From an uncultured Alphaproteobacteria bacterium (GTDB lineage Bacteria; Pseudomonadota; Alphaproteobacteria; Sphingomonadales; Sphingomonadaceae): DNA of 64,000 nt. The notes beneath the pieces were generated by a model. That model saw only the letters and a program-made list of their open reading frames with translations, did no database searches and was not told the origin of the DNA. The stretch covers positions 185,065 to 249,064 of the forward strand of contig CAWJMA010000007.1 in the NCBI GenBank assembly GCA_963843855.1, in the 5' to 3' direction. Shown piece after piece: positions 40,708 through 62,109 of the stretch (positions are counted from its first letter, which is position 1; each line of letters starts with the position of its first letter). Position numbers and translations under genes: made by a program.

Positions 40708-41091
40708 CTAGTCACCCCCGTTATCGCCGTCGAGTGCCGCTTTGGCCTGATGCCACTCGCGCCCGTCGAAATGTTCGATGGCAAGGGCGAGCGGCTGGTC
40801 GAGGCAGTGGGCGTTGACGCTCCAAGCTCCCGGATGGCTGCGCGGCTGGTAGAAGCTCTTGATGCCGCAGGCCGAGCAGAACAGATGCTCTGCCGCGCCT
40901 GTCCCGAAGCGGTAAGAAGTGAGCGCCTCTGCCCCGCTTTCCAGAACCAGGTCCGCGTGCGGGACGATGATGTGGAGAAATCCGGTCGCCGAGCAGATCG
41001 AGCAATTGCAGTCGAGCGCTGGAACCGGCTCCGAGGGAAGCGTGCAGCGGAAACGCACCGCCTTGCAGTGACATCCGCCAGTCGCGTTCAC
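40708..41091 (-). CDS. GFA family (CENP-V) zinc-binding protein
   Basis: [22 protein letters not shown]; GTGA overlap with the true glmS stop at 41088. Confidence 0.9.
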
Positions 41092-42912
41092 TCCACCGTT
41101 ACCGACTTCGCGAGGTTGCGGGGCTGGTCGACGTCGGTGCCTTTCAGCACGGCGACATGGTAGGCGAGCAGCTGGACCGGGACGGCGTAGACCAGCGGGG
41201 CGATCAGCGGGTGGACGCTGGGCATCTCGATTGTCGCGACGCAGCCGTCGCCGGCTGAGGCAATTCCCTCCGAAATCGCTGATCAGGATGATCTTGCCGC
41301 CCCGCGCGCGGACTTCCTGCATGTTGCTGACGGTCTTTTCGAACAATGGGCCGGATGGCGCCAGGACGATCACCGGGACCAAGTCGTCGATCAACGCGAT
41401 CGGGCCGTGCTTCATCTCCCCCGCGGCATAGCCTTCGGCATGGATGTAACTAATTTCCTTCAGTTTCAACGCGCCTTCCAGCGCCATCGGATAATCCGGC
41501 CCGCGCCCGAGATAGAGCACGTCGCGCGCCGGCGCGACGAGATGGGCCATGCCCTTGATCTCGTCGTCATGGGCGAGCGCGGCAGACATTGCTTCGGGCG
41601 CTTCCTGCAAATGGCCGACGATTGCCGCTTCGGCATTGCGGTCGAGTTTTCCCTTGGCGCGCGCCAGGTTGGCGGCAAGCGCGGCAAGCACGGCGAGCTG
41701 GCAGGTAAAGGCCTTGGTCGAGGCAACCCCGATTTCCGGTCCGGCATGGGTCGGCAGGAGTAGATCCGCCTCGCGCGCCATCGAACTGGTCGGGACGTTG
41801 CAGACGACGGCGATAATCTGGCCGTGCGCCCGCGCGTGCCGCAGCGCCGCAAGCGTATCGGCGGTTTCACCGCTCTGCGAAATGAACAGCGCAAGGCCGC
41901 CTGCCTCCAGGACCGGGTCGCGGTAGCGGAACTCGCTCGCGACATCGATGTCGACGGGCACCCGGGCGAATTGCTCGAACCAATATTTGGCGACCAGCCC
42001 GGCGTAGAAAGACGTGCCGCAAGCGACGATGGTGACGCGTCTGACCGTGGCCAAGTCGAACCGGAAATCGGGGAGCGCGACCTCGCCCTCGAATGGGCGG
42101 AGGTATGAACGCAGCGTGTCGCCGACGACCACCGGCTGCTCGAAGATCTCCTTGAGCATGAAATGCGGATGGTTGCCCTTATCAATCCGGTCGGCCACCG
42201 CGCCGCTTTGCACGACCGGACGCTCGACCGGATTGTTGGCGCGGTCGAAAATCGCGATCGAATCCCGGCGAATGACAGCCCAGTCACCTTCGTCGAGATA
42301 AGCGATCTGCTGGGTCAGCGGTGCAAGCGCCAAGGCGTCGGAACCAAGGTAATTTTCGCCCGACCCGAAGCCGACGGTCAGCGGCGCTCCCATGCGCGCG
42401 CCGATGACCATATCGGGATGATCCTTGAACAGGAACGCCATCGCAAAGGCACCATGCAACCGCGGCAAGACGGCCGCGACGGCATCCTGCGGCGATTCCC
42501 CGCTCTCGATCTCTCGCGCCACCAGATGCGCGACAACTTCGCTGTCGGTCTCGCTCAGGAAGGTGCGTCCTTCGGCAATCAATTCATCGCGGAGCGGCTT
42601 GAAATTCTCGATGATTCCATTGTGCACCAAGGCAACCGGGCCGACGATGTGCGGATGGGCATTATCGACGGTCGGCGCGCCATGGGTCGCCCAGCGGGTG
42701 TGTGCGATCCCGACGTCGCCGTGAAGCGGCTTCGCGTCGAGCTCGGCACGCAAGTTTTCCAGCTTGCCCTCGGCCCGGCGCCGCGCGAACTCGCCGTCTT
42801 CGACGGTGCAGATGCCGGCGCTGTCATAGCCGCGATATTCCAACCGCTTCAGCCCATGAAACAGATCCCGTGCGGCACCATTACGACCGACAATCCCGAC
42901 AATCCCGCACAT
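41088..42912 (-). CDS. glmS: Glutamine-fructose-6-phosphate aminotransferase; +1 frameshift at about 41274
   Basis: [43 protein letters not shown]. Removing one base from GAAATC (41272-41277) restores SDSEGI...[11 protein letters not shown] stop. Confidence 0.96.
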
Positions 42913-47102: not shown

Positions 47103-47179
<77 letters not shown>

Positions 47180-47207
47180 TTGCTCGAAGTTAGGGCTAGG
47201 TTTCCCG

Positions 47208-48683
47208 ATGGTGCCATTCAACGAAACGCGAATGAATCGGGTTGGTCTCGCCGGCCTGATAAGCAGTTTTGGGTTGCTGATCGCGATCCTTATCTTCGTG
47301 CTTTGGGGCTTTAGCGCCAACCAGCGGGCGAGCGATCTGGTCAATCACACGTACGAAGTGAAGGACGCGGTCTCGGACCTCACCCGCGATTTTGAGCGCA
47401 TGACGGCGACACATCATGGGTTCATTCTCGACCCCGCACCGTATCGCAAAGAGACTTTCCTCGAGAGCAGCGAGCAAATTCTTCCTGGCTTGGATCGCGT
47501 TCAGCGACTTGTGGCCGACAATGAAAACCAAGTCCGTCGGGTGAACGAACTGCGTCCGTTGGTCGCCACTTATATGACAGACATGAGGGGTGCTTTCTCG
47601 CGCCCGGACCGTGCGCTGGCAAACTTCAATGCCTTGAAGAATCGGGAAACATTGGCGCGGGTACGCGCCCTCACCGAGCAAATAGATGTCGAGGAAGATG
47701 TTTTGCTGACGTCGAGGCTAGCCAGCGAGCGCCGCGCCATTTTCCGTGTGCAGGCGCTCCTCGCATTCGCCGGGCTGGGGCTGTTAATTGCGTCGCTCGG
47801 CACCATCTTCATGCTCCGGCGACAAGCCCGCGAACTTGTGGTCAGTCGGACCAAGCTCCACGTGCTGAATACCGATCTTGAAAGCGCGGTCGTCGAACGC
47901 ACTGCCGACTTGAAACGCGCGAACGAGGAAATCTCCCGCTTTGCCTATATCGTGAGCCACGATCTACGCTCTCCGCTCGTCAACGTGATGGGCTTCACTG
48001 CAGAGTTAGAGACCGCGGACAAAACCCTCGCCGCCTTCGTCGATCGCGTCGCGGAAGAACAGCCCGCGCTGGTCGACGACAAAGTCCGATTCGCGGTGAG
48101 GGAGGATTTGCCAGAAGCGATCGGCTTTATCCGCTCCTCGACGCAAAAGATGGACCGGTTGATCAATGCGATTCTTAACTTGTCGCGGCAGGGTCGACGC
48201 GAGCTGAATGCCGAGCATTTGCCGATGGAAACGGTGATTGGCGAAATCAGCGACAGCCTCGCGACACTTGCCGAGGAACGCGATGCGACGATCCGGATCG
48301 AGACCCCCCTGCCCGACCTGAAACATGACCGCGTGGCGATCGAGCAATTGTTCCAGAACCTGATCGAGAATGCGACGAAGTATCTAAAGCCCGGCCAGCC
48401 AGGAAAAATTGTCGTCCGGGGTCGCCGCAATGGCAAGCGCGCTATCTTCGAAATCGAGGATAATGGACGCGGAATTGCGAGCAACGATCATGAACGCATC
48501 TTCGAGCTTTTCCGTCGTTCCGGATCGCAGGACCAGCGCGGTGAAGGCATCGGCCTTGCCCATGTCCGTGCGCTGGCTTACCGGCTTGGCGGGAACGTTA
48601 CGGTGGCGTCAGCATTGAACGCAGGAGCGACTTTTACGGTCGACCTGCCGGTTGCATTTCAAGCGGAGGCAGAAGAGAAATGA
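47208..48683 (+). CDS. CHASE3-type sensor histidine kinase
   Basis: TM-periplasmic helical domain (LVNHTYEV)-TM, H-box VSHDLRSPL, NLIENATKY, DNGRGI, GIGLA. Confidence 0.88.
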   Translation: MVPFNETRMNRVGLAGLISSFGLLIAILIFVLWGFSANQRASDLVNHTYEVKDAVSDLTRDFERMTATHHGFILDPAPYRKETFLESSEQILPGLDRVQRLVADNENQVRRVNELRPLVATYMTDMRGAFSRPDRALANFNALKNRETLARVRALTEQIDVEEDVLLTSRLASERRAIFRVQALLAFAGLGLLIASLGTIFMLRRQARELVVSRTKLHVLNTDLESAVVERTADLKRANEEISRFAYIVSHDLRSPLVNVMGFTAELETADKTLAAFVDRVAEEQPALVDDKVRFAVREDLPEAIGFIRSSTQKMDRLINAILNLSRQGRRELNAEHLPMETVIGEISDSLATLAEERDATIRIETPLPDLKHDRVAIEQLFQNLIENATKYLKPGQPGKIVVRGRRNGKRAIFEIEDNGRGIASNDHERIFELFRRSGSQDQRGEGIGLAHVRALAYRLGGNVTVASALNAGATFTVDLPVAFQAEAEEK

Positions 48684-49123
48684 ATACCCTTCACCCGGTC
48701 AACATCATCATGGTCGAGGATGACGAAGGTCATGCCCGATTGATCGAGAAGAATATCCGGCGCGCCGGAATCTCAAACGATATCCGACACTTCCTCGATG
48801 GCACGACCGCACTCGAGTATATTTTCGACGATCCCGACGGGCCAAGCCAGAATGGTCCTTGTTTGGTGCTGCTCGATCTTAACCTGCCCGACATGAGCGG
48901 CACCGATATCCTCGCCAAAATCAAGGCGGATGAGAAAATGCACGCAATCCCGGTCGTCATCCTGACCACCACGGACGACAAACAGGAAATCCAACGGTGT
49001 TATGACCTAGGCTGCAATGTCTACATTACCAAGCCGGTGAACTATGAAAGCTTCGCCGACGCGATCCGCCAGTTAGGCTTGTTCCTGTCCGTCATACAGG
49101 TGCCCGACACGGCGGCGACCTGA
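48680..49123 (+). CDS. Single-domain response regulator (Rcp1-like)
   Basis: MVEDD, LLDLNLPDMSG, ILTTT, CYDLGCNVYITKPV. Confidence 0.92.
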   Translation: MNTLHPVNIIMVEDDEGHARLIEKNIRRAGISNDIRHFLDGTTALEYIFDDPDGPSQNGPCLVLLDLNLPDMSGTDILAKIKADEKMHAIPVVILTTTDDKQEIQRCYDLGCNVYITKPVNYESFADAIRQLGLFLSVIQVPDTAAT

Positions 49124-50154
49124 TGCACAAACCGCGTAAGATCCTGTACATCGATGACGATGCCGGCATTCGCAGGCTCGTCGAGAAGCTCCTCACACGG
49201 CGCGGCCATACTGTCGCAACCGCCGAGAGTGGCGCAGAGGGGATTGCTATAGCCGCTGCCAACGATTTCGAGTTGATCGCGGTCGACCATTATATGCCTG
49301 GCATGGACGGACTTGCGACGTTGCAGGCTCTTCGCACGAATCCGGATTGCCCGCCGGTGGTTTATGTCACCGGATCGGAAGAAAGTGCCGTTGCGGTCGC
49401 TGCACTCAAGGCGGGTGCAGCCGATTATGTCGTCAAATCGGTCGGCGACGATTTCGTCGACCTGCTCGAACAGGCGTTTGCCCACGCGCTGGACACCAAT
49501 CGCCTGATCCGAGCCAAGGAGAAAGCGGAAGAGGATTTGCGCCAGGCGAACGAGCGGCTCGAAGCCTTGCTGCGTGAGGTCAATCACCGCGTCGCCAACT
49601 CGCTGCAATTGGTAATGACGATGGTGGTGATGCAGTCGCGAATGCTCGACGATCCGTCGGCCAAGGAAGCGCTCGCCGATACCGAGCGACGGATTCAGGC
49701 GATCGCCCAGGTCCACCGCCGCTTGTACACCGCCGGCGATGTCGAAAGCGTCGCGATGGACGAATATCTCGACGCCATCGTCGAGGAACTCGAGGCGACT
49801 TGGTCGACGCCGGTCGCGCCGCGTACGATCATGCTCGAGGCACAAGCGGTCCGGGTCCACACTGACAAGGCAGTCAGCCTGGGCGTGATCGTCAATGAGC
49901 TGGTCTCCAACGCGTGCAAATATGCGTATGGTGACGGCGTCAGCGGCGAAGTCCGGGTGCGTTTTTCGCAGCAGGACGAAAAGAGCTTCCGGCTTGAGGT
50001 TGAGGATGACGGCTGCGGACTGGGCGACGGAGCGCCGCGCGGCACCGGGCTTGGATCGAAGCTGATCGCGGCAATGGCGAAGAGCCTGGCAGCATCGCTG
50101 GAGTATGACACGCAGCACAATGGTTGCCGCGCCGTTCTGGTCGCCAGCTTCTAG
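49123..50154 (+). CDS. Hybrid REC-HisKA_2 (HWE-like) histidine kinase
   Basis: YIDDD/VDHYMPG receiver, EVNHRVANSLQLV H-box, NELVSNACKYA, DDGCG, GLGSKLI. Confidence 0.9.
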   Translation: MHKPRKILYIDDDAGIRRLVEKLLTRRGHTVATAESGAEGIAIAAANDFELIAVDHYMPGMDGLATLQALRTNPDCPPVVYVTGSEESAVAVAALKAGAADYVVKSVGDDFVDLLEQAFAHALDTNRLIRAKEKAEEDLRQANERLEALLREVNHRVANSLQLVMTMVVMQSRMLDDPSAKEALADTERRIQAIAQVHRRLYTAGDVESVAMDEYLDAIVEELEATWSTPVAPRTIMLEAQAVRVHTDKAVSLGVIVNELVSNACKYAYGDGVSGEVRVRFSQQDEKSFRLEVEDDGCGLGDGAPRGTGLGSKLIAAMAKSLAASLEYDTQHNGCRAVLVASF

Positions 50155-51320
50155 TCGCCCCATCCTTCGAGGATTTCCACGAAGCGACTTAGCCAATTGT
50201 TTGTCTGATGCCCATCAACGACGCGGTGGTCGATGGTCAACGTGACGTATGCCATCGGCCGGATCAGGATCGCGTCCTGTCCGTCGATCTCGCGGACGAC
50301 AACCCTCTTTTCCAGCTTGCCGACACCAAGAATGGCGGCCTGCCCGGAATGCAGGATGATCGGACTTGCCAGAAGGCTGCCCGAAACACCGTGATTGGAG
50401 ATGGTGAAGCTGCCGCCCGAAACGTCCGCGCCGGCCAGTTTTCCGCTGCGCGCACGACCGGTCAGGTCGTCAAGCGTGCGGCCGATGTCTTGCAGGTCGA
50501 GCGACCCGGCGTCCTTGACCACGGGAACGACCAAGCCCTTTTCGCCGAGGGCGGTTCCAACGCCGATATTGATGGTTGAGGACACGGCGATGCGATTCTC
50601 TTCCCAGCGTCCGTTGATCGCCGGCGCGACCGCCATCGCTTCGGCGGCCGCCTTGACGATATAAGCGGTGTAGCTGAGCTTCACGCCGTTCGCGGCCATC
50701 GCTTTTTTGTGCGCGGCGATTGCGCTGAAATCGGCCTCGAACAGGGCGGTGACGTGCGGAGCGTCGCTGACCGCACGGACCATGTTCTCGGCGATTTTCA
50801 GTCGCATCCGATCGTGCGGAATGTCGGCGCCGCTGAACGGCACTGTTGTCTTGGCAGCTGACGCGCCACCGGAGTAGACGAAGCGGTCAACGTCGTCGCG
50901 CGTAATGCGCCCGTCGCGACCCGTTCCGGAAATCCGGGCGGGATCGACCTTGTGCTGTACCACCGCACGCTTGACCGCGGGCGACAAGCGCATGCCGCGG
51001 ATCGTATTACCGTCAAACGCCACCGTCGGCTCGGGCACCTCGGTTACCGGCGCGGCTTGGACGGCGGCGGGCCTTGCCTCACCCATTCCTTCCGGATCGA
51101 TGCGCGCCAGCAGTGCGCCCGGCTCGGCCGTATCGTCAGTGGCGAGAAAAGTCTCAACCAGCACTCCGGCCGCCGGCGACGGAACTTCCTGCGTCACCTT
51201 GTCGGTTTCCAGTTCGACCAGTGGATCGTTGATCGCGACACTTTCGCCGACCTGTTTCAGCCAGGCGCGGACGACTGCCTTAGTGCCTTCCTGTTCATCG
51301 GGAACGCGGACTTCAATCAT
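50151..51320 (-). CDS. 2-oxoacid dehydrogenase E2 (dihydrolipoamide acyltransferase)
   Basis: Lipoyl motif ELETDKV, PSBD SPAVKR...GTGRDGRITRDDV, catalytic DHRVVDG. Confidence 0.93.
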   Translation of the reverse strand: MIEVRVPDEQEGTKAVVRAWLKQVGESVAINDPLVELETDKVTQEVPSPAAGVLVETFLATDDTAEPGALLARIDPEGMGEARPAAVQAAPVTEVPEPTVAFDGNTIRGMRLSPAVKRAVVQHKVDPARISGTGRDGRITRDDVDRFVYSGGASAAKTTVPFSGADIPHDRMRLKIAENMVRAVSDAPHVTALFEADFSAIAAHKKAMAANGVKLSYTAYIVKAAAEAMAVAPAINGRWEENRIAVSSTINIGVGTALGEKGLVVPVVKDAGSLDLQDIGRTLDDLTGRARSGKLAGADVSGGSFTISNHGVSGSLLASPIILHSGQAAILGVGKLEKRVVVREIDGQDAILIRPMAYVTLTIDHRVVDGHQTNNWLSRFVEILEGWGD

Positions 51321-51322
51321 CG

Positions 51323-53377
51323 TCAGAACCCCACAAGTCGGTCGATCTCGGCACGAATGTCATCGACGCTCGGCACCGCCCATTCCAGCAGGCTGGGATG
51401 ATGCGGGCTGGGAATATCGGGCATCGTGACCCGCGCAACCGGCGCATCAAGATCGAGAAAAGCCTCGTCCGCGACCACGGCGGCGATTTCCGCGCCAAAA
51501 CCCCCGGTACGCAAATCCTCGTGAACGATCAGGCAGCGACGGGTGCGGCGGACACTGTCCAGCACCATGTCGTGATCCCACGGCATCAAAGTGCGCAGAT
51601 CGATGACGTCGGCGCTGATCCCCTCGGCAGCGGCTTCGCAGCGCGGCACCATGGCGCCCCAGGTGACGATCGTAATGTGGTCGCCGACGCGGGTCTTCTT
51701 TGCCTTGCCGAACGGCAGCGCGAAATCGTCGCCCGGCCACGGTCGCCGCGCCCAGCTGTCGTCCAGCATCGCGCGATGTTCGAAGAAGATCACCGGGTCA
51801 TGGCCGCGCAGGGATGAGCGGAGCAGGCCGACCGCGTCCTCGGCATTGGACGGGACCGCGACCTTCCAACCGGGATTGTGAACGAATTGCACCTCATTGG
51901 TCTGGCTGTGCCAGGGGTCGCCGCATTTAAAGAAGCCGCCAGGGATACGGAGAACCATCGGCGCGGCGAAGCGATTGGCGGTGCGCCAACGCATGGTGCC
52001 GCAATCGTTGATCTGCTCGGTTGCCGGTTCGGCATATTTGCGGAACTGGATTTCAGGAACCGGCAGCAATCCGGCCAACGCCATGCCGACCGCACGGCCC
52101 ACGATGCCCTCTTCGTTCAACGAGGTGTCGAATACCCGCTCGACGCCATATTTGTCCTGCAGGCCAAGAGTCACGGCATGAACGCCGCCCTTCGGACCGA
52201 CATCTTCGCCGAATACACACATTTTCGGATTGGCAGCGAGTTCCTGGTCGAGGACGCGGCGGATCGCGGTGACCATGTTGATGCGCTGGCCGTCGGGCTG
52301 CGGCTGGTCGGTGGTGCTGTCCAGGCTTAGCCCCGCCTGCCCGCCGATGCAGGCGTGCTCGCCCTCAAAAAAGACATGGTCGGTGACCCGGTCGGGGGAC
52401 GATATCCCGCGCGCCTCGGCGTCACGGCGGGCGGCCTCGACATCAGCGTCAACCGACGCGGCAAGACGCGCCCAGTCGAGGTTGTGGCTGAACGCCTTGA
52501 GCTTGGGCAGCGGGTCGCGCGCCCACTCCGCCTCGACCTCCTGTGGCGACTTGTACGTCTGCGTGTCCTGCGCGCTGTGCCCTTCCAGACGCGGAACCTT
52601 GAGGCGGACGAGTGCTGGGCCCTTGCGCGCGCGGACATGCGCGACCGCCGCGCTGATGATCTGGCTTGCTTCGGCGGGTTCGGTGCCGTCGCCGTTCCAG
52701 ATCGCAAGTCCCTTGAAACTCGCCAGATTGGCGGCAATGTCGCAGCCCGGCGTCTGGTAATCCGACGTCACCGAGATGCCGTAGCCATTATCCTCGATGT
52801 AGAACAACATCGGCAATTGTTGCGTCGTGGCAATTGTTAGCGCCGACCAAAATCCACCGGTTGCGCAACTTGCGTCACCGCCCAGAACAACGCCGATTGC
52901 CCCGGTGTCCGCGTCGCCCAGCACCTTTGTTTTGTATGAGATGGCCTGTGCCCAGCCGGCGGCCGGGGTGTATTGCGCGCCCACCCCGCCGCACATTGGG
53001 AGCGCGTGCGCGCCGCCGGGGTTGGGATAATTGAAAACCACCCCGATGTCGCGACCGTCGCTGTAACCGCCCGCTCGTCCCATGCCCGATCCCAGCGCAT
53101 CGGCAAGGTCGACACCAAGCGCAAGAAGCATGGGCCGAGAACGATAATAGCCGCACGCCGCATCGCCGTCTTTGAGGTGCAAACCAAGGATGACCTGCGC
53201 CATGTCGTGGCCGCGGGCGCTAAATTGATAGAGGACCTTTTTCTCGGGAACGAGGATGGTTTCCTCGAGATGGTCCAGCGCCCGGCTGGTCAGCACCAGG
53301 CGCGCGACCTCTTCCCAGTCGACGATAAAGTCGCTGTCGCCGTCAAATACTTCGCTTCGCTCGGCCACCAGCGTCAC
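51323..53377 (-). CDS. Fused alpha/beta E1 of a 2-oxoacid dehydrogenase (branched-chain-type)
   Basis: SARGHD, TPP motif GDA...EDNGYGIS, beta part FGEDVG.KGGV, DTSLNEEGIVG, EIQFRKY, GDPWHSQ. Confidence 0.9.
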   Translation of the reverse strand: MTLVAERSEVFDGDSDFIVDWEEVARLVLTSRALDHLEETILVPEKKVLYQFSARGHDMAQVILGLHLKDGDAACGYYRSRPMLLALGVDLADALGSGMGRAGGYSDGRDIGVVFNYPNPGGAHALPMCGGVGAQYTPAAGWAQAISYKTKVLGDADTGAIGVVLGGDASCATGGFWSALTIATTQQLPMLFYIEDNGYGISVTSDYQTPGCDIAANLASFKGLAIWNGDGTEPAEASQIISAAVAHVRARKGPALVRLKVPRLEGHSAQDTQTYKSPQEVEAEWARDPLPKLKAFSHNLDWARLAASVDADVEAARRDAEARGISSPDRVTDHVFFEGEHACIGGQAGLSLDSTTDQPQPDGQRINMVTAIRRVLDQELAANPKMCVFGEDVGPKGGVHAVTLGLQDKYGVERVFDTSLNEEGIVGRAVGMALAGLLPVPEIQFRKYAEPATEQINDCGTMRWRTANRFAAPMVLRIPGGFFKCGDPWHSQTNEVQFVHNPGWKVAVPSNAEDAVGLLRSSLRGHDPVIFFEHRAMLDDSWARRPWPGDDFALPFGKAKKTRVGDHITIVTWGAMVPRCEAAAEGISADVIDLRTLMPWDHDMVLDSVRRTRRCLIVHEDLRTGGFGAEIAAVVADEAFLDLDAPVARVTMPDIPSPHHPSLLEWAVPSVDDIRAEIDRLVGF

Positions 53378-54561
53378 CCGATCATGCCCACGATCGCCGC
53401 GACGAACCGGTCCACTGCCTCGTCCGACATGCCAAGCACATTGAATCGTCCGCTGTCGGCCATGTAAATCGCCTTTTCCGTGCGCAATGCGATGACCTGA
53501 TCGCGGGTCAGCGGAAGCATGGAGAACATCCCCTTTTGCCCTCCGATGTAGGCGAGCGAGGGGTGCGCCGCGGACAATTTGCCGCGAATGCGGTGAATAC
53601 GCGCCAGCATTTCACCCAATTCGGCAAGCCAGTCGGCACGAAGCCCGGCATCGTCGAGCACGTAACGGATGGCGGCGGCACCGTGGTCCGGCGGCATTGA
53701 CCAGCTTTCGCGTGCAAGTTGAAGGACGCGGTCCATGGCCTTGGCGCTGGTCGCCTCGCTGTCGCTCTTGATGAAGAAATTGCCGACGCGGTCACGATAG
53801 ACACCGAAATTCTTGTCACAGCTTTGCGCAACTAACACGTCGCCGCATGCCGCAATCACCCCCCGCAGGCCGGCCGCGTCCGAATCCAGCCCATCGCCAA
53901 GTCCCTGATAGGCAATGTCCACCACCGGAAGAAGTTCGCGTTCGGCGATGATCCGCGTGACCTCGGCCCATTGGTCGGCATCGAGATCGGCGCCAGTCGG
54001 ATTGTGGCAACAGCCGTGAAGAAGTACCGCATCGCCCGGCGCCGCAGCCTTGAGCGCGGCCAGCATGGTATCGAACCGCACCGACTGTGTGTCGCGGTCG
54101 TAATAAGGATATTCGACGATTTCGAGCCCGCAGCCCGCGACGATTGGCTGATGGTTGGGCCAGGTCGGCGTTCCGATCAGGACCCTCGCTTTCGGATTGA
54201 GCGCCGCAACGAGTTTGAACGCAAGGCTCAATGCGCCGCATCCGCCGGGGGTCTGGACGCCCTTGATTTCAGAGGGAAGCGGCCCGCCGAAAACGATTTC
54301 GCCGATCAATTCCGTAAAGCGAGGATCGCCCAGGCTGCCAAGGTAGGATTTGCTGTCCTGTAGTCCCCACAGTCGCTTTTCGGCGGCCTTGACCGCGCGC
54401 AGGACCGGGGTCGCCCCGCTGCCATCCTTGTAGACGCCGACGCCGACGTCGATCTTGTCGGGACGGGTGTCGGCATTGGCCATTGCGATGAGCGCAAGCA
54501 GGCTGTCGCTTTTCACCGGTTCGAGGTCGGACAGGCGTCGGGTGCGGGTCGTCGTTAACAT
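53374..54561 (-). CDS. Aromatic amino acid aminotransferase (TyrB/AspC family)
   Basis: DVGVGVYKD, QTPGGCGAL, PTWPNH, HGCCHNPTG, DIAYQG, SCDKNFGVYRDRVG. Confidence 0.92.
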   Translation of the reverse strand: MLTTTRTRRLSDLEPVKSDSLLALIAMANADTRPDKIDVGVGVYKDGSGATPVLRAVKAAEKRLWGLQDSKSYLGSLGDPRFTELIGEIVFGGPLPSEIKGVQTPGGCGALSLAFKLVAALNPKARVLIGTPTWPNHQPIVAGCGLEIVEYPYYDRDTQSVRFDTMLAALKAAAPGDAVLLHGCCHNPTGADLDADQWAEVTRIIAERELLPVVDIAYQGLGDGLDSDAAGLRGVIAACGDVLVAQSCDKNFGVYRDRVGNFFIKSDSEATSAKAMDRVLQLARESWSMPPDHGAAAIRYVLDDAGLRADWLAELGEMLARIHRIRGKLSAAHPSLAYIGGQKGMFSMLPLTRDQVIALRTEKAIYMADSGRFNVLGMSDEAVDRFVAAIVGMIG

Positions 54562-54603
54562 GGCTGGCAGGTCTAGCCGCAAACGCGGCGCGGAGCAAAA
54601 GCG

Positions 54604-55677
54604 CTAGACGTCGTAATCGAGGGCGACATCGTCCCCGCACGGCACGGATTGGCAGGTCAACACATAGCCTTCCGCCACTTCTTCTTCGGTCAAGCCATAC
54701 TGAACCGCCATTTCGACCTTGCCGCTCGTCAATTTGGCCCGGCATGTGGCGCAAACGCCTGCCTTGCAGGCAAAGGGTGCTGGCATTCCGGCCTTGCGCG
54801 CCGAATCGAGAATGTTGGTGCCATCGAAAGCAATCTTTCGTGTGCGCCCGTCCAGCGTAACTGCGATCGACACGCCGGTCGCAACTTCCTGTGCCCGGGC
54901 AAGCTGGGCCGCTTCCCCTGCGGAAGGGCGTCCGGCTGTGAAACGCTCGATGTGAATGCGGTCCTTGGCGACTCCCTTGTCCTTCAGCACGCTTTCGGCG
55001 GCGTCCATCATCGGGCCCGGGCCGCAAATGAACCATCCATCGACCACGGCGACATCGGTTACCAGTCGCTCCACCGCTTCGCCGCACGTCGCGGCGTCGA
55101 GCATTCCATTGAACAGCCCGACATCGCCGGCCTCGTCGCTCAGAAAGTGGAAAATCTCCAGCCGTCCCATGTAGCGATCCTTGAGGTCGGCAAGCGCCTC
55201 GAGAAAGATGATCGAGCGGCTGTCGCGATTGCCGTAGAACAAGGTGAACCGGCTGAGCGGCTCTTCCCGCATCGCGGTCCTGATCAGCGACATGATCGGC
55301 GTGATTCCTGATCCGCCGGCGAACGCGACGTAGCGCCGCGCCGAGCCCGGATCGAACACAGTCGTAAAGCTGCCATGCGGCGGCATCACTGCAAGCCGGT
55401 CGCCAGCCTTCAGGTTGTCGCCGGCCCAGTTCGAAAACAGGCCGCCCGCGATGCGTTTGACGGTCACCGTCAATTGTTCATCGGCGGGCGCGGTGCACAA
55501 GGAATAGTTGCGCCGCACCTCTTCGCCCTCGATGATCGCCATCAAGGTCAGGTGCTGCCCCGCCTTGAAGCGGTAGGTATCCTTCAGATCATAAGGCACA
55601 TCGAACCGGATCGAGACCGCATCGTCGGTCTCGGCAACGACCTCATCGATCGTCAACGCATGGAAATGTTCGGCCAT
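54604..55677 (-). CDS. paaE: Phenylacetyl-CoA epoxidase reductase subunit
   Basis: RRNYSLC FAD motif, GGSGITP, C-terminal ferredoxin PFACKAGVCATC...LTCQ. Confidence 0.93.
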   Translation of the reverse strand: MAEHFHALTIDEVVAETDDAVSIRFDVPYDLKDTYRFKAGQHLTLMAIIEGEEVRRNYSLCTAPADEQLTVTVKRIAGGLFSNWAGDNLKAGDRLAVMPPHGSFTTVFDPGSARRYVAFAGGSGITPIMSLIRTAMREEPLSRFTLFYGNRDSRSIIFLEALADLKDRYMGRLEIFHFLSDEAGDVGLFNGMLDAATCGEAVERLVTDVAVVDGWFICGPGPMMDAAESVLKDKGVAKDRIHIERFTAGRPSAGEAAQLARAQEVATGVSIAVTLDGRTRKIAFDGTNILDSARKAGMPAPFACKAGVCATCRAKLTSGKVEMAVQYGLTEEEVAEGYVLTCQSVPCGDDVALDYDV

Positions 55678-55686
55678 CAGGCGCTC

Positions 55687-56532
55687 TTACCAGGTCGCGT
55701 TAGGATAGGTGCGCGGCAGATATTGCATCACCGCCAGCAAATGCCCCAGATGCTCGCTGTGATGGCCGCGCCGCCCGCCAAGGATCGGTCGCTGGTCATC
55801 AGGCACCGCGAGATGCGCGTTGGCCAACACATCCGCGATGGCCGCGCGATATTCGCGTTCGAAGCTTCGCGGATCGGGGACGGTCTGGAACGAAATCAGC
55901 GCCTCCAGCACGCCATCGACTTCGAAAAGTTCGGGAACAAAGCGCCAGCACCAGTCGACCCCGTCACGCATTCGGCGCGCGCTTTCCTCGGTCCCGTCGC
56001 CCAGCCGGATGACCCAGTCGGCGGCCAATTCGCGGTGGTAGGCGACTTCCTTGACCGCCTTTTGCGCGATCGCGCACAGGAACGGATCGGGGCTTTCGCA
56101 AAGTTCGCGGTACAAGATGTGCTGGTACGTCGAAAAGAACAGCTGGCGCGCCATGGTCCGGCCAAAGTCGCCATTGGGCTGTTCGACCAGCCAGCAATTG
56201 CGGAAATCCAGAACGTCCCGCTTAAAGGCAAGCTCGTCGCCATCGCCGTTATTCGCTTTTTCGTAAATGTGGGTCGCTTGGCCGATCAGGTCGAGCGCGA
56301 TGTTTGCAAGGCTAAGATCGACCTCGACCGAGGGTGCATGGCCGCACCATTCGCTCAGCCGCTGGCCAAGGATCAACGAATCGTCACCCAGCCGGAGGAG
56401 GTAATCGTAATAGCCGTCCTCAAGCGGGTCGGCTGGCGCTTCCACGCCGACATCCTTGTCGAACGCCCCGTGATCGGGAACGCGCTCGGCCAGCTTTTCG
56501 ACATTTTTCTCGATCGGCGGAAGGGACGGCAT
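55687..56532 (-). CDS. paaC: Phenylacetyl-CoA epoxidase subunit C
   Basis: LRLGDDSLILGQRLSEWCGHAP, LVEQPNGDF, KEVAYH, HSEHLGHLLAVMQYL. Confidence 0.95.
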   Translation of the reverse strand: MPSLPPIEKNVEKLAERVPDHGAFDKDVGVEAPADPLEDGYYDYLLRLGDDSLILGQRLSEWCGHAPSVEVDLSLANIALDLIGQATHIYEKANNGDGDELAFKRDVLDFRNCWLVEQPNGDFGRTMARQLFFSTYQHILYRELCESPDPFLCAIAQKAVKEVAYHRELAADWVIRLGDGTEESARRMRDGVDWCWRFVPELFEVDGVLEALISFQTVPDPRSFEREYRAAIADVLANAHLAVPDDQRPILGGRRGHHSEHLGHLLAVMQYLPRTYPNATW

Positions 56533-56825
56533 CAGATGTGGGTTACTTCGTCGGGAATGTCATAGAAGGTCGGGTGCCGGTAGATCTTGTCTTGCGCCGG
56601 CGCGAACAACGGCCCGGCGTCCGATGGATCGCTGGCGACGATGTCGGCCGACTTGACGACCCACAGGCTCACCCCTTCCATCCGCCGCGTGTAGGTGTCG
56701 CGGGCGTGGGCGAGCGCGAGCTTCTGGTCAGGAGCATGAACGCTGCCAACATGACGGTGGCTAAGCCCGCCCTTCGAACGGACGAAGACTTCCCAAAGCG
56801 GCCAGTCATGACCGTCGCCACTCAC
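56532..56825 (-). CDS. paaB: Phenylacetyl-CoA epoxidase subunit B
   Basis: WPLWEVFVRSKGGLSHRHVGSVHA, ARDTYTRR, YRHPTFY. Confidence 0.96.
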   Translation of the reverse strand: MSGDGHDWPLWEVFVRSKGGLSHRHVGSVHAPDQKLALAHARDTYTRRMEGVSLWVVKSADIVASDPSDAGPLFAPAQDKIYRHPTFYDIPDEVTHI

Positions 56826-57806
56826 GCCACCTTCCTCTCGCGCTGCTTGGCCTCAAAGGCCGCGGCCGCGTCGCGAACCCAGGCACCATTATCCCAAGCC
56901 TCGCGGCGGGCTGTAATCCGTTCCTTAGCGACCGGGCCTTCGCCGCGCACCACCGCGTAAAATTCTTCCCAGTCGACCGCGCCGAAATCATAACCACCTT
57001 TGGCGTCATTCCATAACAGCGCTTCGTCGGGAACGGTCAGGCCGATGATATTCGGCTTGCGGAACGGTGATGTCGACGAACTTCTGGCGCAGCTCGTCAT
57101 TGGTTTCGCGCTTGATCCGCCAGCGCATCGATCGCTCGGTGTTGGGCGAATTGTCGTCGGGCGGACCGAACATCATCAGGCTTGGCCACCACCAACGGTT
57201 GAGCGCGTCCTGCGCCATGCGTTTTTGCTGCGGCGTTCCGCCGGCAAGCGCCATCATCGCCTCGTAGCCCTGCCGCTGGTGGAAGCTTTCTTCCTTGCAG
57301 ACACGCACCATCGCGCGGGCATAAGGCCCGTAGCTGGTCCGTTGCAGCGGAACCTGGTTCATGATCGCGGCGCCGTCGACCAGCCAGCCGATCGCGGCGA
57401 TGTCGGCCCAGGTCAGGGTCGGGTAATTGAAGATGGTCGAATATTTTGCCTTACCGCTGTGCAGCGCGTCGATCATTTCCTCGCGGCTCGTCCCAAGCGT
57501 CTCGGCGGCGCAATAGAGGTAGAGGCCATGGCCCGCCTCGTCCTGAACCTTGGCCAACAGGATCGCCTTGCGGCGAAGCGACGGCGCGCGGGAAATCCAG
57601 TTCCCCTCCGGCAACATCCCGACGATCTCGCTATGCGCGTGCTGCGATATCTGGCGGACCAGCGTCTTGCGATACGCCTCTGGCATCCAATCCTTGGGCT
57701 CGATGAATTCGTCAGCGGCAACGCGCGCCTCGAATGCTTCGAGCAATGCCGGATCCTCGGCACTCTCGATCGGCTGGACGTTCTTGCTGAGCTCGGTGGT
57801 GTACAT
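56822..57806 (-). CDS. paaA: Phenylacetyl-CoA epoxidase subunit A; +1 frameshift at about 57046-57052
   Basis: [44 protein letters not shown]; the C-terminus (GLTVPD...DWEEF) is in ORF 56822-57100. Confidence 0.95.
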
Positions 57807-57849: not shown

Positions 57850-58353
57850 TCACTGATAATCGGCCGTAATCGTGACGACGCCGCTGTATGTGCCATCGGA
57901 GGTCGCGGACGAAAGCGCTAGCGATCCGCCAACGTTGAAGTCCTTGCCGGGATTGCCGCTATTGGTCAGCGTTACCGAGGTGGGCGCAATGGGCGTGAAG
58001 CGAATTTTTCCCCCGGTCGCATTGGTCAGGTCGGTCGGCGCCGCGCTGACCAGCACGACATTTCCATTCGACCCTGCGACATTGAGGATTGCCGGGCGCG
58101 GAGCGCCGGTGCAGACCAAAGGTGCCGGGCACGTCAAGACGCCGGTCATGCTGAGGCTTACCGTCCAGCTTCCCGTACCAGCACCAAGCAAGATCTGGCC
58201 GAAGTCGAGTCCCTGCTTGGCGGTGAGCTGGAGCGGCTTGACCACCTTCACGTTTACCGTCGCATTGACCGACGCCGCGTGGGCAGCCGTACTTGCAAGC
58301 CCGATCACGGAAAACGCCATCGAATATACGATCGATTTGAGAAAGCCGGTCAT
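57850..58353 (-). CDS. DUF4402-like exported beta-rich protein
   Basis: Signal peptide AAHA, LDFG near the N-terminus, FNVGGSL...GTYSG..TITADY end. Confidence 0.75.
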   Translation of the reverse strand: MTGFLKSIVYSMAFSVIGLASTAAHAASVNATVNVKVVKPLQLTAKQGLDFGQILLGAGTGSWTVSLSMTGVLTCPAPLVCTGAPRPAILNVAGSNGNVVLVSAAPTDLTNATGGKIRFTPIAPTSVTLTNSGNPGKDFNVGGSLALSSATSDGTYSGVVTITADYQ

Positions 58354-58396
58354 TCTACCCCAACGCAATGTCCGTCGTCGGGCTAGCCAAATAAGG

Positions 58397-58415: not shown

Positions 58416-58476
58416 GGTCGGCGACGGCTGACGCTGCCCTTGCATGGATCTCGTTGCGTGGCCAAAGCTTGACGTC

Positions 58477-59259
58477 ATGACCAACGAGACCATCCTCTTC
58501 GACCGCCACGACGGTATCGCCCGGATAACGCTCAATCGCCCAGACCGCTTGAATAGCTTCACCCGCGCCATGCACGCCGAACTGCGCGACGCACTTGGAG
58601 CCCTTGGCGACAGTCGCGTCGTCGTTATCACCGGTGCCGGGCGCGCCTTTTGTGCCGGCCAAGACTTGGGCGACCGTGCGGTCAGTGCCGACACGGGACC
58701 TACCGACCTTGGCGAGACGGTCGAAAAATGTTGGAATCCCCTCATTCGGACGATCGCCGCGCTGCCCCAGCCGGTCATTGCCAAAGTCAATGGCGTCGCG
58801 GCCGGCGCAGGCGCCAGCATCGCCATGGCTTGCGACCTCGTCGTCGCGGCGCAGTCGGCAAAGTTCATCCAGAGCTTTTCTGCCTTAAGCCTCGTCCCCG
58901 ACACCGGGGGCAGCTGGCACCTCACACGGCATCTCGGTCAGGCCCGCGCGATGGGGCTCGCGCTGACCGGCGAACCGCTGGAAGCCAAGCAGGCGGCGGA
59001 TTGGGGAATGATCTGGAAATGCGTCGATGACGACGCACTCGACAGTCAGGTCGATGCCTTGGCGGAGCGGCTTGCCGCGCTTCCTCCGATGGGCCTGGCC
59101 GCAATCAAGGCGATGATTCGAACCAGTTGGGATCGCAGCCTCGACGAGGAACTCGACCTCCAACGCGACGAAATGCGCCGCCTCGGATTTACCGACGATT
59201 ACCGTGAGGGGATTGCCGCTTTCCTTGCCAAGCGCCCAGCTGTTTTCACGGGACGGTAA
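58477..59259 (+). CDS. paaG: 2-(1,2-epoxy-1,2-dihydrophenyl)acetyl-CoA isomerase
   Basis: TLNRPDRLNSF, RAFCAGQDL, GVAAGAGA, LVPDTGG (catalytic Asp); paa context. Confidence 0.9.
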   Translation: MTNETILFDRHDGIARITLNRPDRLNSFTRAMHAELRDALGALGDSRVVVITGAGRAFCAGQDLGDRAVSADTGPTDLGETVEKCWNPLIRTIAALPQPVIAKVNGVAAGAGASIAMACDLVVAAQSAKFIQSFSALSLVPDTGGSWHLTRHLGQARAMGLALTGEPLEAKQAADWGMIWKCVDDDALDSQVDALAERLAALPPMGLAAIKAMIRTSWDRSLDEELDLQRDEMRRLGFTDDYREGIAAFLAKRPAVFTGR

Positions 59260-59723
59260 GCGCACTCCCGATCGCGCGCATCGGTTCGCCAAGGACTCCA
59301 TAAGCCAGTCCGGCGAGGAAGAATGTCGCGCAGATCGCGCCGAACCCGGCGAGCGCCATTTCCCATCGCCCGCCCGCAATGCCGCGCCGTGTCAGCGCGC
59401 TCCTTGATTGTTCGAGGAACTAGACGCCGTTCGACAGGAAGCAGATGCGGCCGTGCCTTTGGCTTGTCCAAGATGACGTCGGCAATCGGGATCAGCCCCT
59501 GCGCCTTTGCGCCGTAGCGCCCGTCCCTTGCCCACATGACCTGTGCGACGATGACATGGCCGCCGCGCCTAAGTTCGAGGAAATGGCCGCGTTCCATCGG
59601 GGCTGAGCAGCTGAACATCACGCCGCGGGTCGATAGGTTGAGGATCGTGGCATCCTGCCATTCGGCGGCGACCCGCAGGCGCGCCGGAACGGCAACGGGT
59701 TGGCGTGATTCGCGCTGCTTCAT
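59246..59723 (-). CDS. PilZ-like domain protein with C-terminal TM helix; +1 frameshift at about 59363
   Basis: QRESR..V (RxxxR), ILNLSTRG (N/DxSxxG). Removing one G from ATGGGAAATG gives MEMALAGFGAICATFFLAGLAYGVLGEPMRAIGSALTVP stop. Confidence 0.75.
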
Positions 59724-59855
59724 CACATTTGGCCCTCCAGAAACGCGGTGACGACAGCGATGGCTAGAGGCGATATCCTCACTGATAACTTGCGCATTCG
59801 TCCGGATTGGAGATGGTCGTAGCAGCGCGCTTCGGCGGCGAACGGGAGAGACGCG

Positions 59856-60050
59856 ATGAAGAGCGTGTTGATGATCATCGGGATTGCAGCGTTGCTGATG
59901 GGCCTGCTGTGGGTCGGCCAGGGCCTGGGCTACGTCCAATGGCCGCAATCCAGCTTCATGCTTGACCAGCGCCCTTGGGCGCTGCGCGGCGCGATCCTTG
60001 CTGTGGTTGGCTTGGCCCTCATCGCGTGGTCGAAGCGAACCGTTCACTAG
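59856..60050 (+). CDS. Small two-TM membrane protein
   Basis: GGGAGAG SD; GLLWVGQGLGYVQWPQSSFMLDQRPW between two hydrophobic helices. Confidence 0.8.
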   Translation: MKSVLMIIGIAALLMGLLWVGQGLGYVQWPQSSFMLDQRPWALRGAILAVVGLALIAWSKRTVH

Positions 60051-60090
60051 CGGTTTTGGCAATCGGGTTGCTTCGTCGTAAGGCGGCGCC

Positions 60091-62109
60091 ATGAAGACCC
60101 AGCAGCTGCTCAACTATGCCCGCAATTCCTGGATTGCCGGCAACGATCCCCGCGACTTGCCGAGTGCGATCGACGGCACCATCGTCGCAAGCACCGGCTC
60201 CGGAGGGATCGATTTTGCCGCCATGCTCGACCATGCCCGCAATGTCGGGGGGCCCGCGCTTCGCGCCCTGACATTCCACGAACGCGCGCGGATCCTCAAG
60301 GGCCTCGGGCTTGCGATCCTTGCCGCCAAGGAACCGCTGTACGAGCTGAATTACCAGACCGGCGCGACCCGCAGGGACGGCTGGATCGATATCGAGGGCG
60401 GTGCCGGGACCCTGCTTTCCTTTTCGTCGAAGGGCCGCCGCGAACTGCCCGACGCCCACGTCCTGCTCGACGGCGCGCTCGAACCCTTGTCGAAGGAAGG
60501 CAGCTTCGTCGGCCAGCATATCTACACCTCGCTGCAGGGCGCCGCGGTGCACATCAACGCGTTCAACTTCCCGGTCTGGGGAATGCTGGAAAAGCTTGCG
60601 CCAACCTTGCTTGCGGGGGTGCCGGCCATCGTCAAGCCGGCCAGCTCGACCGCTTTCCTGTGCGAAGCCGCGTTCCGCGTCATGATCGAAACCGGCCTTC
60701 TTCCCGACGGCGCGGTCCAGCTGATCGTTGGCGGCGTCGGCGACCTGTTCGATCACCTGGGCGGCCAAGATGTCGTCAGCTTTACCGGGTCGGCTGCGAC
60801 CGCGGCCAAGTTGAAAAACCATCCAATGGTCCTTCGCGAAAGCGTCCGCTTCGTTGCCGAACAGGACAGTTTGAACGCCTCCATCCTGGGCCCGGACGCG
60901 GTGCCCGGATCACCCGAATTCGACCTGTTCGTGACTGAGGTCGTCACCGAGATGACCGTCAAGGCCGGCCAGAAATGCACCGCGATCCGCCGCGCGATGG
61001 TGCCGGCGCATCATCTCGACGCGGTCGAGGAGGCGCTCCGCGACCGCCTTGGCACAATGAAGGTCGGCGATCCCCGCGACGACGGCAGCCGCGTTGGCGC
61101 GTTGGTGTCATGCAGCCAGCGCGACGATGTCCGCGCCCAGATCGCCAAACTGGTGGCCGCCGGTGCGCGGATCGTCGCGGGCGATCCCCAGGCAATTGTC
61201 GGCCCCAAGGACGGCGCCTTCATGCAGCCGACCCTGCTTCGTGCGGACGATCCCTGGCAGGCCGAGGCCGTCCACGACGTCGAAGCATTCGGCCCGGTCA
61301 GCACAATCATGCCGTATCGCGATCTCGCCGATGCCGTTTCGCTTGCCAATCGCGGCATGGGCAGCCTGGCCCTTTCCCTCTTCACCCATTCCCCCGACGT
61401 GGCGCGCGATTTCATTCAGGGCGCAGCCGCGTTCCACGGACGGATGCTGGTCATCAACCGCGACAATGCCGCCGAATCCACCGGCCACGGCAGCCCGCTG
61501 CCGGTCCTTGTCCACGGCGGTCCGGGACGCGCGGGCGGAAGCGAGGAGATGGGCGGAATTCGCGGCGTGAAACATTATATGCAACGCACGGCGATCCAGT
61601 CGACGCCTGCCATGATCGCCGCGATTTCGGGTCAATATATTCCCGGCGGCCCGAAGCATTTTCTCGATGCCCACCCCTTCCGCAAGCGGATGGGCGAACT
61701 GGAAATCGGCGACACGCTCAAGACCGCAAGCCGTACGGTCTCCATCGCGGACATCGAACATTTCGCCGACTTCACCGGCGACAATTTCTACGCCCACATG
61801 GACGATGAAGCCGCCAAGGCATCGCCGATCTTCGAAGGACGGGTAGCCCACGGATATTTGATCCTCAGCTTTGCCGCCGGACTGTTTGTCGATCCCGATC
61901 CGGGCCCCGTGCTCGCAAACACCGGCCTTGAGAATTTGCGCTTCCTGACCCCGCTCTATCCCGGCGATTCAATGCGCGTCGAACTCACCGTCCGCTCGAA
62001 ATCGCTCAAGAGCGAGGAGACCGGCGTCGTGCGCTGGGCGGTCGAGATTTTCAACCAGAAGGACGATTTGGTCGCGACCTACGACCTGCTGACGGAAAAC
62101 ACACCGTGA
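60091..62109 (+). CDS. paaZ: Bifunctional oxepin-CoA hydrolase / aldehyde dehydrogenase PaaZ
   Basis: HINAFNFPVWGMLEK, FTGS, EQDSLNA, KAGQKCTAIRR, C-terminal MaoC domain (FADFTGDNFYAH, AHGY). Confidence 0.96.
   Translation: MKTQQLLNYARNSWIAGNDPRDLPSAIDGTIVASTGSGGIDFAAMLDHARNVGGPALRALTFHERARILKGLGLAILAAKEPLYELNYQTGATRRDGWIDIEGGAGTLLSFSSKGRRELPDAHVLLDGALEPLSKEGSFVGQHIYTSLQGAAVHINAFNFPVWGMLEKLAPTLLAGVPAIVKPASSTAFLCEAAFRVMIETGLLPDGAVQLIVGGVGDLFDHLGGQDVVSFTGSAATAAKLKNHPMVLRESVRFVAEQDSLNASILGPDAVPGSPEFDLFVTEVVTEMTVKAGQKCTAIRRAMVPAHHLDAVEEALRDRLGTMKVGDPRDDGSRVGALVSCSQRDDVRAQIAKLVAAGARIVAGDPQAIVGPKDGAFMQPTLLRADDPWQAEAVHDVEAFGPVSTIMPYRDLADAVSLANRGMGSLALSLFTHSPDVARDFIQGAAAFHGRMLVINRDNAAESTGHGSPLPVLVHGGPGRAGGSEEMGGIRGVKHYMQRTAIQSTPAMIAAISGQYIPGGPKHFLDAHPFRKRMGELEIGDTLKTASRTVSIADIEHFADFTGDNFYAHMDDEAAKASPIFEGRVAHGYLILSFAAGLFVDPDPGPVLANTGLENLRFLTPLYPGDSMRVELTVRSKSLKSEETGVVRWAVEIFNQKDDLVATYDLLTENTP

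Follow-up and report, generated by a model that had tools for sequence, protein, structure and literature searches.

A putative phenylpyruvate dehydrogenase operon linked to phenylacetyl-CoA catabolic genes in a Sphingomicrobium-like soil sphingomonad

The window analysed here is a 64-kb stretch of DNA (positions are numbered along it; it corresponds to C7:185065-249064 of the genome) from a Sphingomicrobium-like metagenome-assembled genome (MAG) of a small soil sphingomonad, which consists of seven contigs with a total length of 2.14 Mb and is 99.9% complete. The element under study is an operon-like array of seven tightly packed minus-strand genes at 50151-57806, which read from 57806 downwards are paaA-paaB-paaC-paaE-aminotransferase-E1-E2. 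Here we report that this operon probably encodes a phenylpyruvate dehydrogenase complex, giving phenylalanine a ligase-free entry into the phenylacetyl-CoA (paa) pathway, which in its aerobic form is a main bacterial route for aromatic carbon. With slightly less assurance, we also consider it likely that an NAD+/lipoamide-dependent phenylpyruvate dehydrogenase, composed of a fused E1, its own E2 and an E3 that is either borrowed or carried, forms a widespread third gateway, ligase-free and ferredoxin-free, by which phenylalanine enters the aerobic phenylacetyl-CoA pathway in Alpha- and Gammaproteobacteria, and that it is the sole such gateway in Sphingomicrobium and at least four other surveyed genera. 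The genes of the array, and the two pathway genes beside it, are as follows.

56822-57806, minus strand: paaA, catalytic subunit of phenylacetyl-CoA 1,2-epoxidase (TIGR02156, 431 bits, above cut-off, in two frames)
56532-56825, minus strand: paaB (TIGR02157, 144.8 bits; cut-off 85)
55687-56532, minus strand: paaC (TIGR02158, 266 bits; cut-off 133)
54604-55677, minus strand: paaE, reductase subunit with FAD, NAD and 2Fe-2S domains (TIGR02160, 409 bits, just below the cut-off of 420.8; Pfam FAD_binding_6, NAD_binding_1, Fer2)
53374-54582, minus strand: class-I (class I alpha) aminotransferase of the TyrB/AspC family (NF006719, 457.7 bits; cut-off 377)
51323-53377, minus strand: fused E1 alpha/beta, 684 amino acids (aa) (Pfam E1_dh, Transket_pyr, Transketolase_C)
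50151-51320, minus strand: E2 dihydrolipoyl acyltransferase (Pfam Biotin_lipoyl, E3_binding, 2-oxoacid_dh)
58444-59259, plus strand: paaG, 1,2-epoxyphenylacetyl-CoA isomerase, divergent from the operon (TIGR02280, 361 bits; cut-off 345)
60091-62109, plus strand: paaZ, oxepin-CoA hydrolase/semialdehyde dehydrogenase (TIGR02278, 992 bits; cut-off 563)

An earlier note on this DNA had described the seven-gene array with overlaps or gaps of at most 42 bp, and had placed paaG and paaZ close by; the domain and profile matches and the remeasured junctions bear out both descriptions. The paaA and paaB genes overlap by 4 bp and paaB and paaC by 1 bp, followed by gaps of 9 bp between paaC and paaE and 21 bp between paaE and the aminotransferase gene (42 bp if the latter starts at the ATG at 54561). 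The aminotransferase stop and the GTG start of E1 overlap in GTGA (4 bp), and 2 bp separate E1 from E2. A promoter and terminator scan gave counts at chance level that are uninformative on co-transcription, with no terminator at any gene boundary; the tight packing is compatible with a single transcript, which the array presumably forms, but is not proof of one. No operator motif was common to the regions upstream of paaA, paaG, paaZ, hpd-paaJ, phhA and hmgA beyond GC-rich chance 9-mers. The same note had found no paaK, feeder decarboxylase, aldehyde dehydrogenase or E3 in the window, and this also held: neither a decarboxylase nor an aldehyde dehydrogenase was found among the ten scanned window open reading frames (ORFs) of 432-734 aa, and the only Lpd-like window gene (31781-33127) was rejected as an E3 because it is a glutathione reductase.

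In the proposed route, the aminotransferase, of TyrB/AroAT type, would convert phenylalanine and 2-oxoglutarate into phenylpyruvate and glutamate. The fused, thiamine pyrophosphate (TPP)-dependent E1 would decarboxylate phenylpyruvate and reductively transfer the phenylacetyl group onto the lipoyl arm of the operon's E2, which would pass it to CoA to yield phenylacetyl-CoA, while an Lpd (E3), from either of the two genes adjoining the 2-oxoglutarate dehydrogenase (OGDH) and pyruvate dehydrogenase (PDH) E2 genes, would reoxidise the lipoamide and make NADH. Phenylacetyl-CoA would then be epoxidised by PaaABC(D)E, largely from the same transcription unit, and PaaG, PaaZ, PaaJ, PaaF and PaaH would complete the pathway. 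Compared with the route through a decarboxylase, an aldehyde dehydrogenase and PaaK, this sequence of steps would avoid free phenylacetaldehyde and phenylacetate and spare an ATP-to-AMP step, a saving implied by the known stoichiometry of PaaK and of 2-oxoacid dehydrogenase complexes. No 2-oxoacid occurs as an intermediate of the paa pathway itself, and phenylpyruvate alone among 2-oxoacids yields the PaaABCE substrate on oxidative decarboxylation. As phenylpyruvate is also the product of phenylalanine transamination, a phenylpyruvate dehydrogenase is the best-supported mechanism. The earlier note had proposed precisely this path, with a dedicated E1/E2 and a shared E3, and the in silico evidence laid out below supports it: the lack of PaaK and IOR, the presence of the pair as a fourth complex, its linkage to paa genes, the occurrence of paaA in 32 of 32 genomes with the E1, and two Lpd genes elsewhere.

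A genome search for paaK, suggested in that note, found none (the best TIGR02155 match reached 27 bits against a cut-off of 646, and tblastn with E. coli PaaK gave no match), consistent with a ligase-free reading. Genome-wide, no fused IOR-type 2-oxoacid:ferredoxin oxidoreductase (IOR) was found either. The remaining paa pathway is present: besides the window genes paaA, B, C, E, G and Z, the genome encodes paaJ-paaD on contig C5 and paaF-like and paaH-like genes. Among the epoxidase subunits, B and C score above their cut-offs, E falls just short of its own, D is encoded outside the cluster, after paaJ on C5, and A scores well but is interrupted.

Other 2-oxoacid dehydrogenase complexes are encoded separately. 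PDH E1 alpha and beta lie on contig C3 and score above equivalog cut-offs, a canonical E1a/E1b/E2 set resembling branched-chain 2-oxoacid dehydrogenase (BCKDH) lies at C4:60454-64008, and contig C6 carries sucB and a PDH-type E2, with a genuine Lpd gene after each of them (TIGR01350, 540 and 551 bits; cut-off 409). With separate PDH, OGDH and BCKDH-like complexes in the genome, the operon's E1/E2 pair is a fourth, extra complex. The operon and the window hold no Lpd; the two C6 genes lie outside the operon, which makes a shared E3 plausible. We considered the operon E1 as the genome's BCKDH (EC 1.2.4.4) and rejected it, given the separate canonical set, the identities of 28% and 44% to that set and the failure to reach any equivalog model.

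The distribution of the pair was surveyed in 301 Sphingomonadales genomes, at least 90% complete, which were searched for E1, paaA, PaaK and IOR and cross-tabulated. An E1 ortholog occurs in 32 of the 301, spread over 12 genera. All 32 also carry paaA, against 41 of the 269 E1-negative genomes, in counts that take no account of shared ancestry; the seven E1-positive genomes in which E1-E2 is unlinked to paa genes are paaA-positive as well. The 73 paaA-positive genomes divide into 35 with PaaK alone, 23 with E1 alone, 9 with both and 6 with neither. IOR is present in four of these six and in none of the 23 E1-only genomes, which comprise 18 of the 19 surveyed genomes of this genus and five genomes of four other genera. 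In those 23 the E1/E2 pair is, as far as gene content predicts, the sole recognisable phenylacetyl-CoA source for a conserved paa pathway.

Synteny, which the earlier note had suggested surveying, likewise ties E1-E2 to paa genes across gene orders and lineages. Across 40 relatives, almost all genomes of the genus carry the fused E1, and the aminotransferase-E1-E2 triplet is retained in nearly all of the best 80 public Sphingomonadaceae loci. In Sphingomicrobium loci the triplet is joined to paaABCE; Allosphingosinicella and Sphingosinicella show a different layout, with the triplet still within about 10 kb of paaZ, paaG, paaJ and paaABC. Further arrangements within the Sphingomonadales are paaABCDE-E1-E2; paaG-paaZ-paaK...AAT-E1-E2; and paaK-paaJ-paaH facing araC-E1-E2-paaG-paaZ. 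In a maximum-likelihood tree these E1s form one clade (support 99/99), within which an inner clade (100/99) has the aminotransferase adjacent.

From four distant fused E1s we had first read the system as specific to Sphingomonadales. This was overturned by a second scan seeded with a homologue of 65% identity from another sphingomonad family, which returned orthologs at 61-77% identity from further Alphaproteobacteria (Caulobacteraceae, Hyphomonadaceae, Rhizomicrobium, Parvularcula, Acetobacteraceae, Rhizobium, Sinorhizobium, Shinella and Jiella), from Gammaproteobacteria (Chromatiales, Steroidobacteraceae, Marinobacter and Pseudomonas massiliensis) and, outside the Proteobacteria, from one Vicinamibacterales (Acidobacteriota) MAG. 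Cultured carriers include Sphingomonas edaphi DAC4, S. cremea G124, Sphingomicrobium lutaoense DSM 24194 and Sinorhizobium saheli LMG 7837. Both scans were pooled and duplicates removed, leaving 95 distinct loci flanked by at least 12 kb. In every one of them E1 is followed by E2, and 73 (77%) have a core paa gene no more than 10 kb away (median distance 2.4 kb). An aminotransferase of the AspC/TyrB family lies within 3.5 kb in 62 of the 95, ahead of the pair in sphingomonads and behind E2 in Caulobacterales-type loci, and paaK stands within the locus in 12. Such diverse gene orders argue against plain inheritance of one ancestral arrangement. Four loci (L149; L176, Jiella flava; L186, Rhizobium leucaenae; L198, Shinella lacus) have an Lpd gene directly after E2 and thus form a complete three-component operon. 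Around the nearest non-orthologous fused E1s, of 34-58% identity (P0121, P0123, P0125, P0136, P0137, P0143 and P0146), there were no paa neighbours. Longer forms occur among the distant fused E1s (P0136; P0189, P0191, P0199 and similar): one has an N-terminal extension of about 400 aa, and many are about 1070-1230 aa long, with the E1 N-terminal and some 400-500 extra residues, possibly as E1-E2 fusions.

The proteins themselves have the expected architecture. The fused E1 carries the domains of the heterotetrameric (alpha/beta) E1 type of 2-oxoacid dehydrogenase complexes in one 684-aa chain: E1_dh at 44-321 (E 3.5e-30), Transket_pyr at 366-538 (2e-29) and Transketolase_C at 557-674 (9.3e-35). 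Conserved motifs are EGHSAQD at 265 in the alpha part (GHS at about 266-268), placed by aligning the loop with the genome's own E1 alphas, and FGEDVG at 389 and WHSQ at 489 in the beta part, found by pattern search and compared by eye with the BCKDH-like E1 beta (GEDVG, THSQ); the GHS loop, the GEDV glutamate and the HSQ histidine have catalytic roles in E1 structures. The closest solved structures are E1s of BCKDH and PDH type, the BCKDH entries giving E-values of 1e-64 to 1e-72 for the beta domain and, for the alpha domain, 9e-29 against the Thermus E1 alpha. E2 is a member of its family, with Biotin_lipoyl at 3-74, E3_binding at 111-144 and 2-oxoacid_dh at 166-385, the lipoyl-lysine motif ETDKV (K41) and the catalytic DHRVVDG at 364. 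A word-indexed protein search returned only near-identical proteins with generic names. E1 is 92% identical to that of one uncultured MAG and 74-88% identical to those of Sphingomicrobium and of 'Sphingomonas' edaphi, cremea and alba. The aminotransferase, which the earlier note had called aromatic, belongs to the AspC/TyrB subfamily by the NF006719 match, a model that spans both AspC and TyrB, and is the only member of that subfamily in the genome. Among solved structures its closest match is 1AY4, the Paracoccus denitrificans aromatic aminotransferase, whose 337 bits exceed those of all AspAT entries (about 295 for wild-type E. coli AspAT, at most 312 for engineered variants) and the 257 of E. 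coli TyrB.

Several points weigh against a phenylpyruvate dehydrogenase, and they are taken here together with the alternatives on which they bear. The E1 TPP motif is atypical, reading GGDAS (166-170)...EDNG (195-198) against the canonical GDG-X(24-30)-NN, so that the Asp and one Asn are retained and the second Gly and the first Asn substituted; the PDH and BCKDH-like E1 alpha of this genome both have an intact GDG...NN. The alpha part of the operon E1 has diverged, sharing about 28% identity with the BCKDH-like E1 alpha, and 22 of the 95 loci have no paa gene within 10 kb. E1/E2 could be a 2-oxoacid dehydrogenase of other or broad specificity (for branched-chain 2-oxoacids, 4-hydroxyphenylpyruvate, indolepyruvate or aromatic 2-oxoacids generally) that is co-regulated with amino-acid catabolism and has no dedicated part in supplying phenylacetyl-CoA, which we regard as unlikely. 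The generic names that databases give to the homologues, 'pyruvate' or '2-oxoisovalerate dehydrogenase E1', would suit it, as would the loci lacking paa neighbours, the 44-46% identity of the E1 beta domain to BCKDH-type E1 beta (44% to the genome's own) and the ability of TyrB-type aminotransferases to take Tyr and Trp besides Phe. The genome already has its canonical BCKDH-like E1a/E1b/E2 set, however, and neither E1 nor E2 reaches an NCBIfam equivalog cut-off. The linkage, moreover, is to the ring-epoxidase genes paaABCE, to paaG and to paaZ, in many gene orders, and paaA accompanies E1 in every E1-positive genome, including the seven in which E1-E2 stands apart. Nor are 4-hydroxyphenylacetyl-CoA and indoleacetyl-CoA known to be used by PaaABCE.

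A second group of adverse points concerns other sources and other fates. PaaK is also present in 9 of the 32 E1-positive genomes, so E1/E2 and PaaK are not strict alternatives; the route that the earlier note described as saving the ATP of PaaK is not a simple replacement of that ligase. The neglect of shared ancestry in the co-occurrence counts also tells against the phenylpyruvate reading. A PhhA-like hydroxylase (226 bits, just below cut-off), 4-hydroxyphenylpyruvate dioxygenase (HPPD), HmgA and fumarylacetoacetase are encoded as well, and phenylalanine and tyrosine therefore probably also enter the homogentisate route. For this reason the view in the earlier note that normal growth of an E1 mutant on phenylalanine would refute the proposal does not hold in this organism. 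The PhhA-like gene lies within C5:43093-50372, where about 4 kb further on the HPPD gene is directly followed by paaJ and paaD, which puts genes of the homogentisate and paa routes in one apparent operon. Phenylacetyl-CoA could, we presume, also arise by beta-oxidation of even-chain phenylalkanoates or through an unrecognised ligase.

If the thioester came from such a source, or from a CoA-transferase, E1/E2 would be a mere passenger, which we think very improbable. Several peripheral routes converge on phenylacetyl-CoA in the pseudomonad phenylacetyl-CoA 'catabolon', and there is a weak AMP-ligase-like match at C7:417704 in this genome. Against a passenger speak the adjacency to paa genes, kept across orders, classes and gene orders, the recruitment of the aminotransferase at least twice, on either side, and the standing of E1/E2 as the only candidate in 23 genomes devoid of PaaK and IOR.

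The last adverse point is a 1-bp insertion near 57050 that breaks paaA into 57006-57806 and 56822-57100 and truncates PaaA after model position 229 of 289 in the present assembly. TIGR02156 positions 1-229 and 228-289 fall in two frames, and E. coli PaaA aligns as two high-scoring segment pairs. Relatives read GCCGAATTCATC where the window reads GCCGAATATCATC, so that their GAATTC is GAATATC here (window 57040-57060). Were the frameshift real, the epoxidase would be dead and the operon decaying in this strain as an early pseudogene array, a reading that is not exclusive of a phenylpyruvate dehydrogenase and that we judge to have only a small chance of being right. The truncation itself fits such decay, the insertion lies outside any homopolymer run, and the small genome of 2.14 Mb may be undergoing streamlining. 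Systematic miscalling at GAATTC, as a methylation motif, found no support as the cause of the insertion, GAATTC not being depleted genome-wide (846 sites).

All other genes of the cluster are nevertheless intact and of full length, and paaA is a single frame in the relatives checked (L018, L019 and L022) and scores above cut-off in all 18 other surveyed genomes of the genus. The normally essential glmS gene (40708-42912) of the same window has a similar single-base shift, near 41265-41280, with the canonical GlmS C-terminus in the +1 frame; the shifted frame passes through Arg/Pro-rich nonsense into a downstream ORF with a GFA domain, giving an apparent fusion of 734 aa. Other few-contig MAGs of the genus also have many split genes (G016, G021). 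Since a broken glmS is unlikely in a free-living bacterium and related MAGs show split genes, both shifts are read as indels in the assembly of a long-read MAG; we hold with moderate confidence that the paaA and glmS frameshifts are probably assembly errors.

Among known systems, paa feeder routes other than the ligase are the decarboxylase/aldehyde-dehydrogenase route and the ferredoxin-dependent IOR, a 2-oxoacid:ferredoxin oxidoreductase with ferredoxin as acceptor, of a family unrelated to E1/E2. IOR resembles the proposed complex in carrying out the same net step and bypassing free phenylacetate, but differs in being absent from this genome and from every one of the 23 E1-only genomes. In Phaeobacter inhibens, Ior1 converts phenylpyruvate directly to phenylacetyl-CoA, which feeds the paa pathway (PMC7497051). 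The PaaK ligase of E. coli and Pseudomonas putida supplies the same PaaABC(D)E substrate; unlike the proposed complex it needs free phenylacetate and ATP (to AMP and PPi), and it is sometimes encoded in the same cluster as E1-E2. The branched-chain complexes (Pseudomonas putida 1QS0/2BP7, Thermus thermophilus 1UM9 and human 1DTW) have the same architecture of E1 alpha and beta, lipoyl-E2 and shared E3, whereas in the operon alpha and beta are fused in 684 aa, the TPP motif is atypical, and the partners are an aromatic-type aminotransferase and paa genes rather than bkd/liu.

The nearest functional precedent, likened to the operon by family and proposed function, is PglB/PglC of Streptomyces pristinaespiralis, a PDH-like E1 suggested to convert phenylpyruvate to phenylacetyl-CoA for L-phenylglycine in the pristinamycin cluster (PMC7089894). 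Like the operon E1 it is of the alpha/beta, PDH-like type, and it competes with PaaABCDE for the same thioester (PMC7089894). In contrast to the operon, it consists of two separate subunits, has no dedicated E2 and serves a biosynthetic, secondary-metabolite setting in an actinomycete. A full-text search of the literature library found no description of a phenylpyruvate dehydrogenase complex, a paa-linked E1 or an assay, only the PglB/C proposal and the direct route of Phaeobacter, and the GapMind paper does not mention the complex. We know of no EC entry for a phenylpyruvate dehydrogenase (acyl-transferring). We propose that the operon may represent a familiar type of complex acting on a substrate that is new to it yet makes physiological sense, and that its broad occurrence has so far gone unrecognised.

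Should this be true, the textbook family of 2-oxoacid dehydrogenases would gain a new substrate class, and intact paa pathways in genomes lacking both PaaK and IOR would be accounted for. It would also correct the generic annotations on the homologues, fill a gap in pathway-prediction tools and offer metabolic engineers an ATP-free, NADH-yielding route to phenylacetyl-CoA, a thioester discussed as a precursor of tropone and phenylglycine products (PMC7497051, PMC7089894).

Some neighbouring genes complete the locus. One of them lies 43 bp upstream of paaA on the same strand:

57850-58368, minus strand: DUF4402 protein (Pfam PF14352, E 3.9e-16)

It occupies the same place in several Sphingomicrobium loci (L023, L026-L030 and L089) and is possibly co-transcribed with the paa operon. 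A paralog is encoded on contig C6, and the DUF4402 genes have no evident tie to aromatic catabolism. The 830-bp interval between paaG and paaZ is occupied by a 304-aa ORF (59199-60113, minus strand) with a weak PilZ-domain match, and the interval is of equal size in the closest relative (L023). On the other side, a plus-strand gene for a response-regulator/HWE-histidine-kinase hybrid (49123-50154) is convergent with E2, sharing 4 bp with its 3' end, and closes a set of CHASE3 kinase, receiver and hybrid kinase genes (47172-50154).

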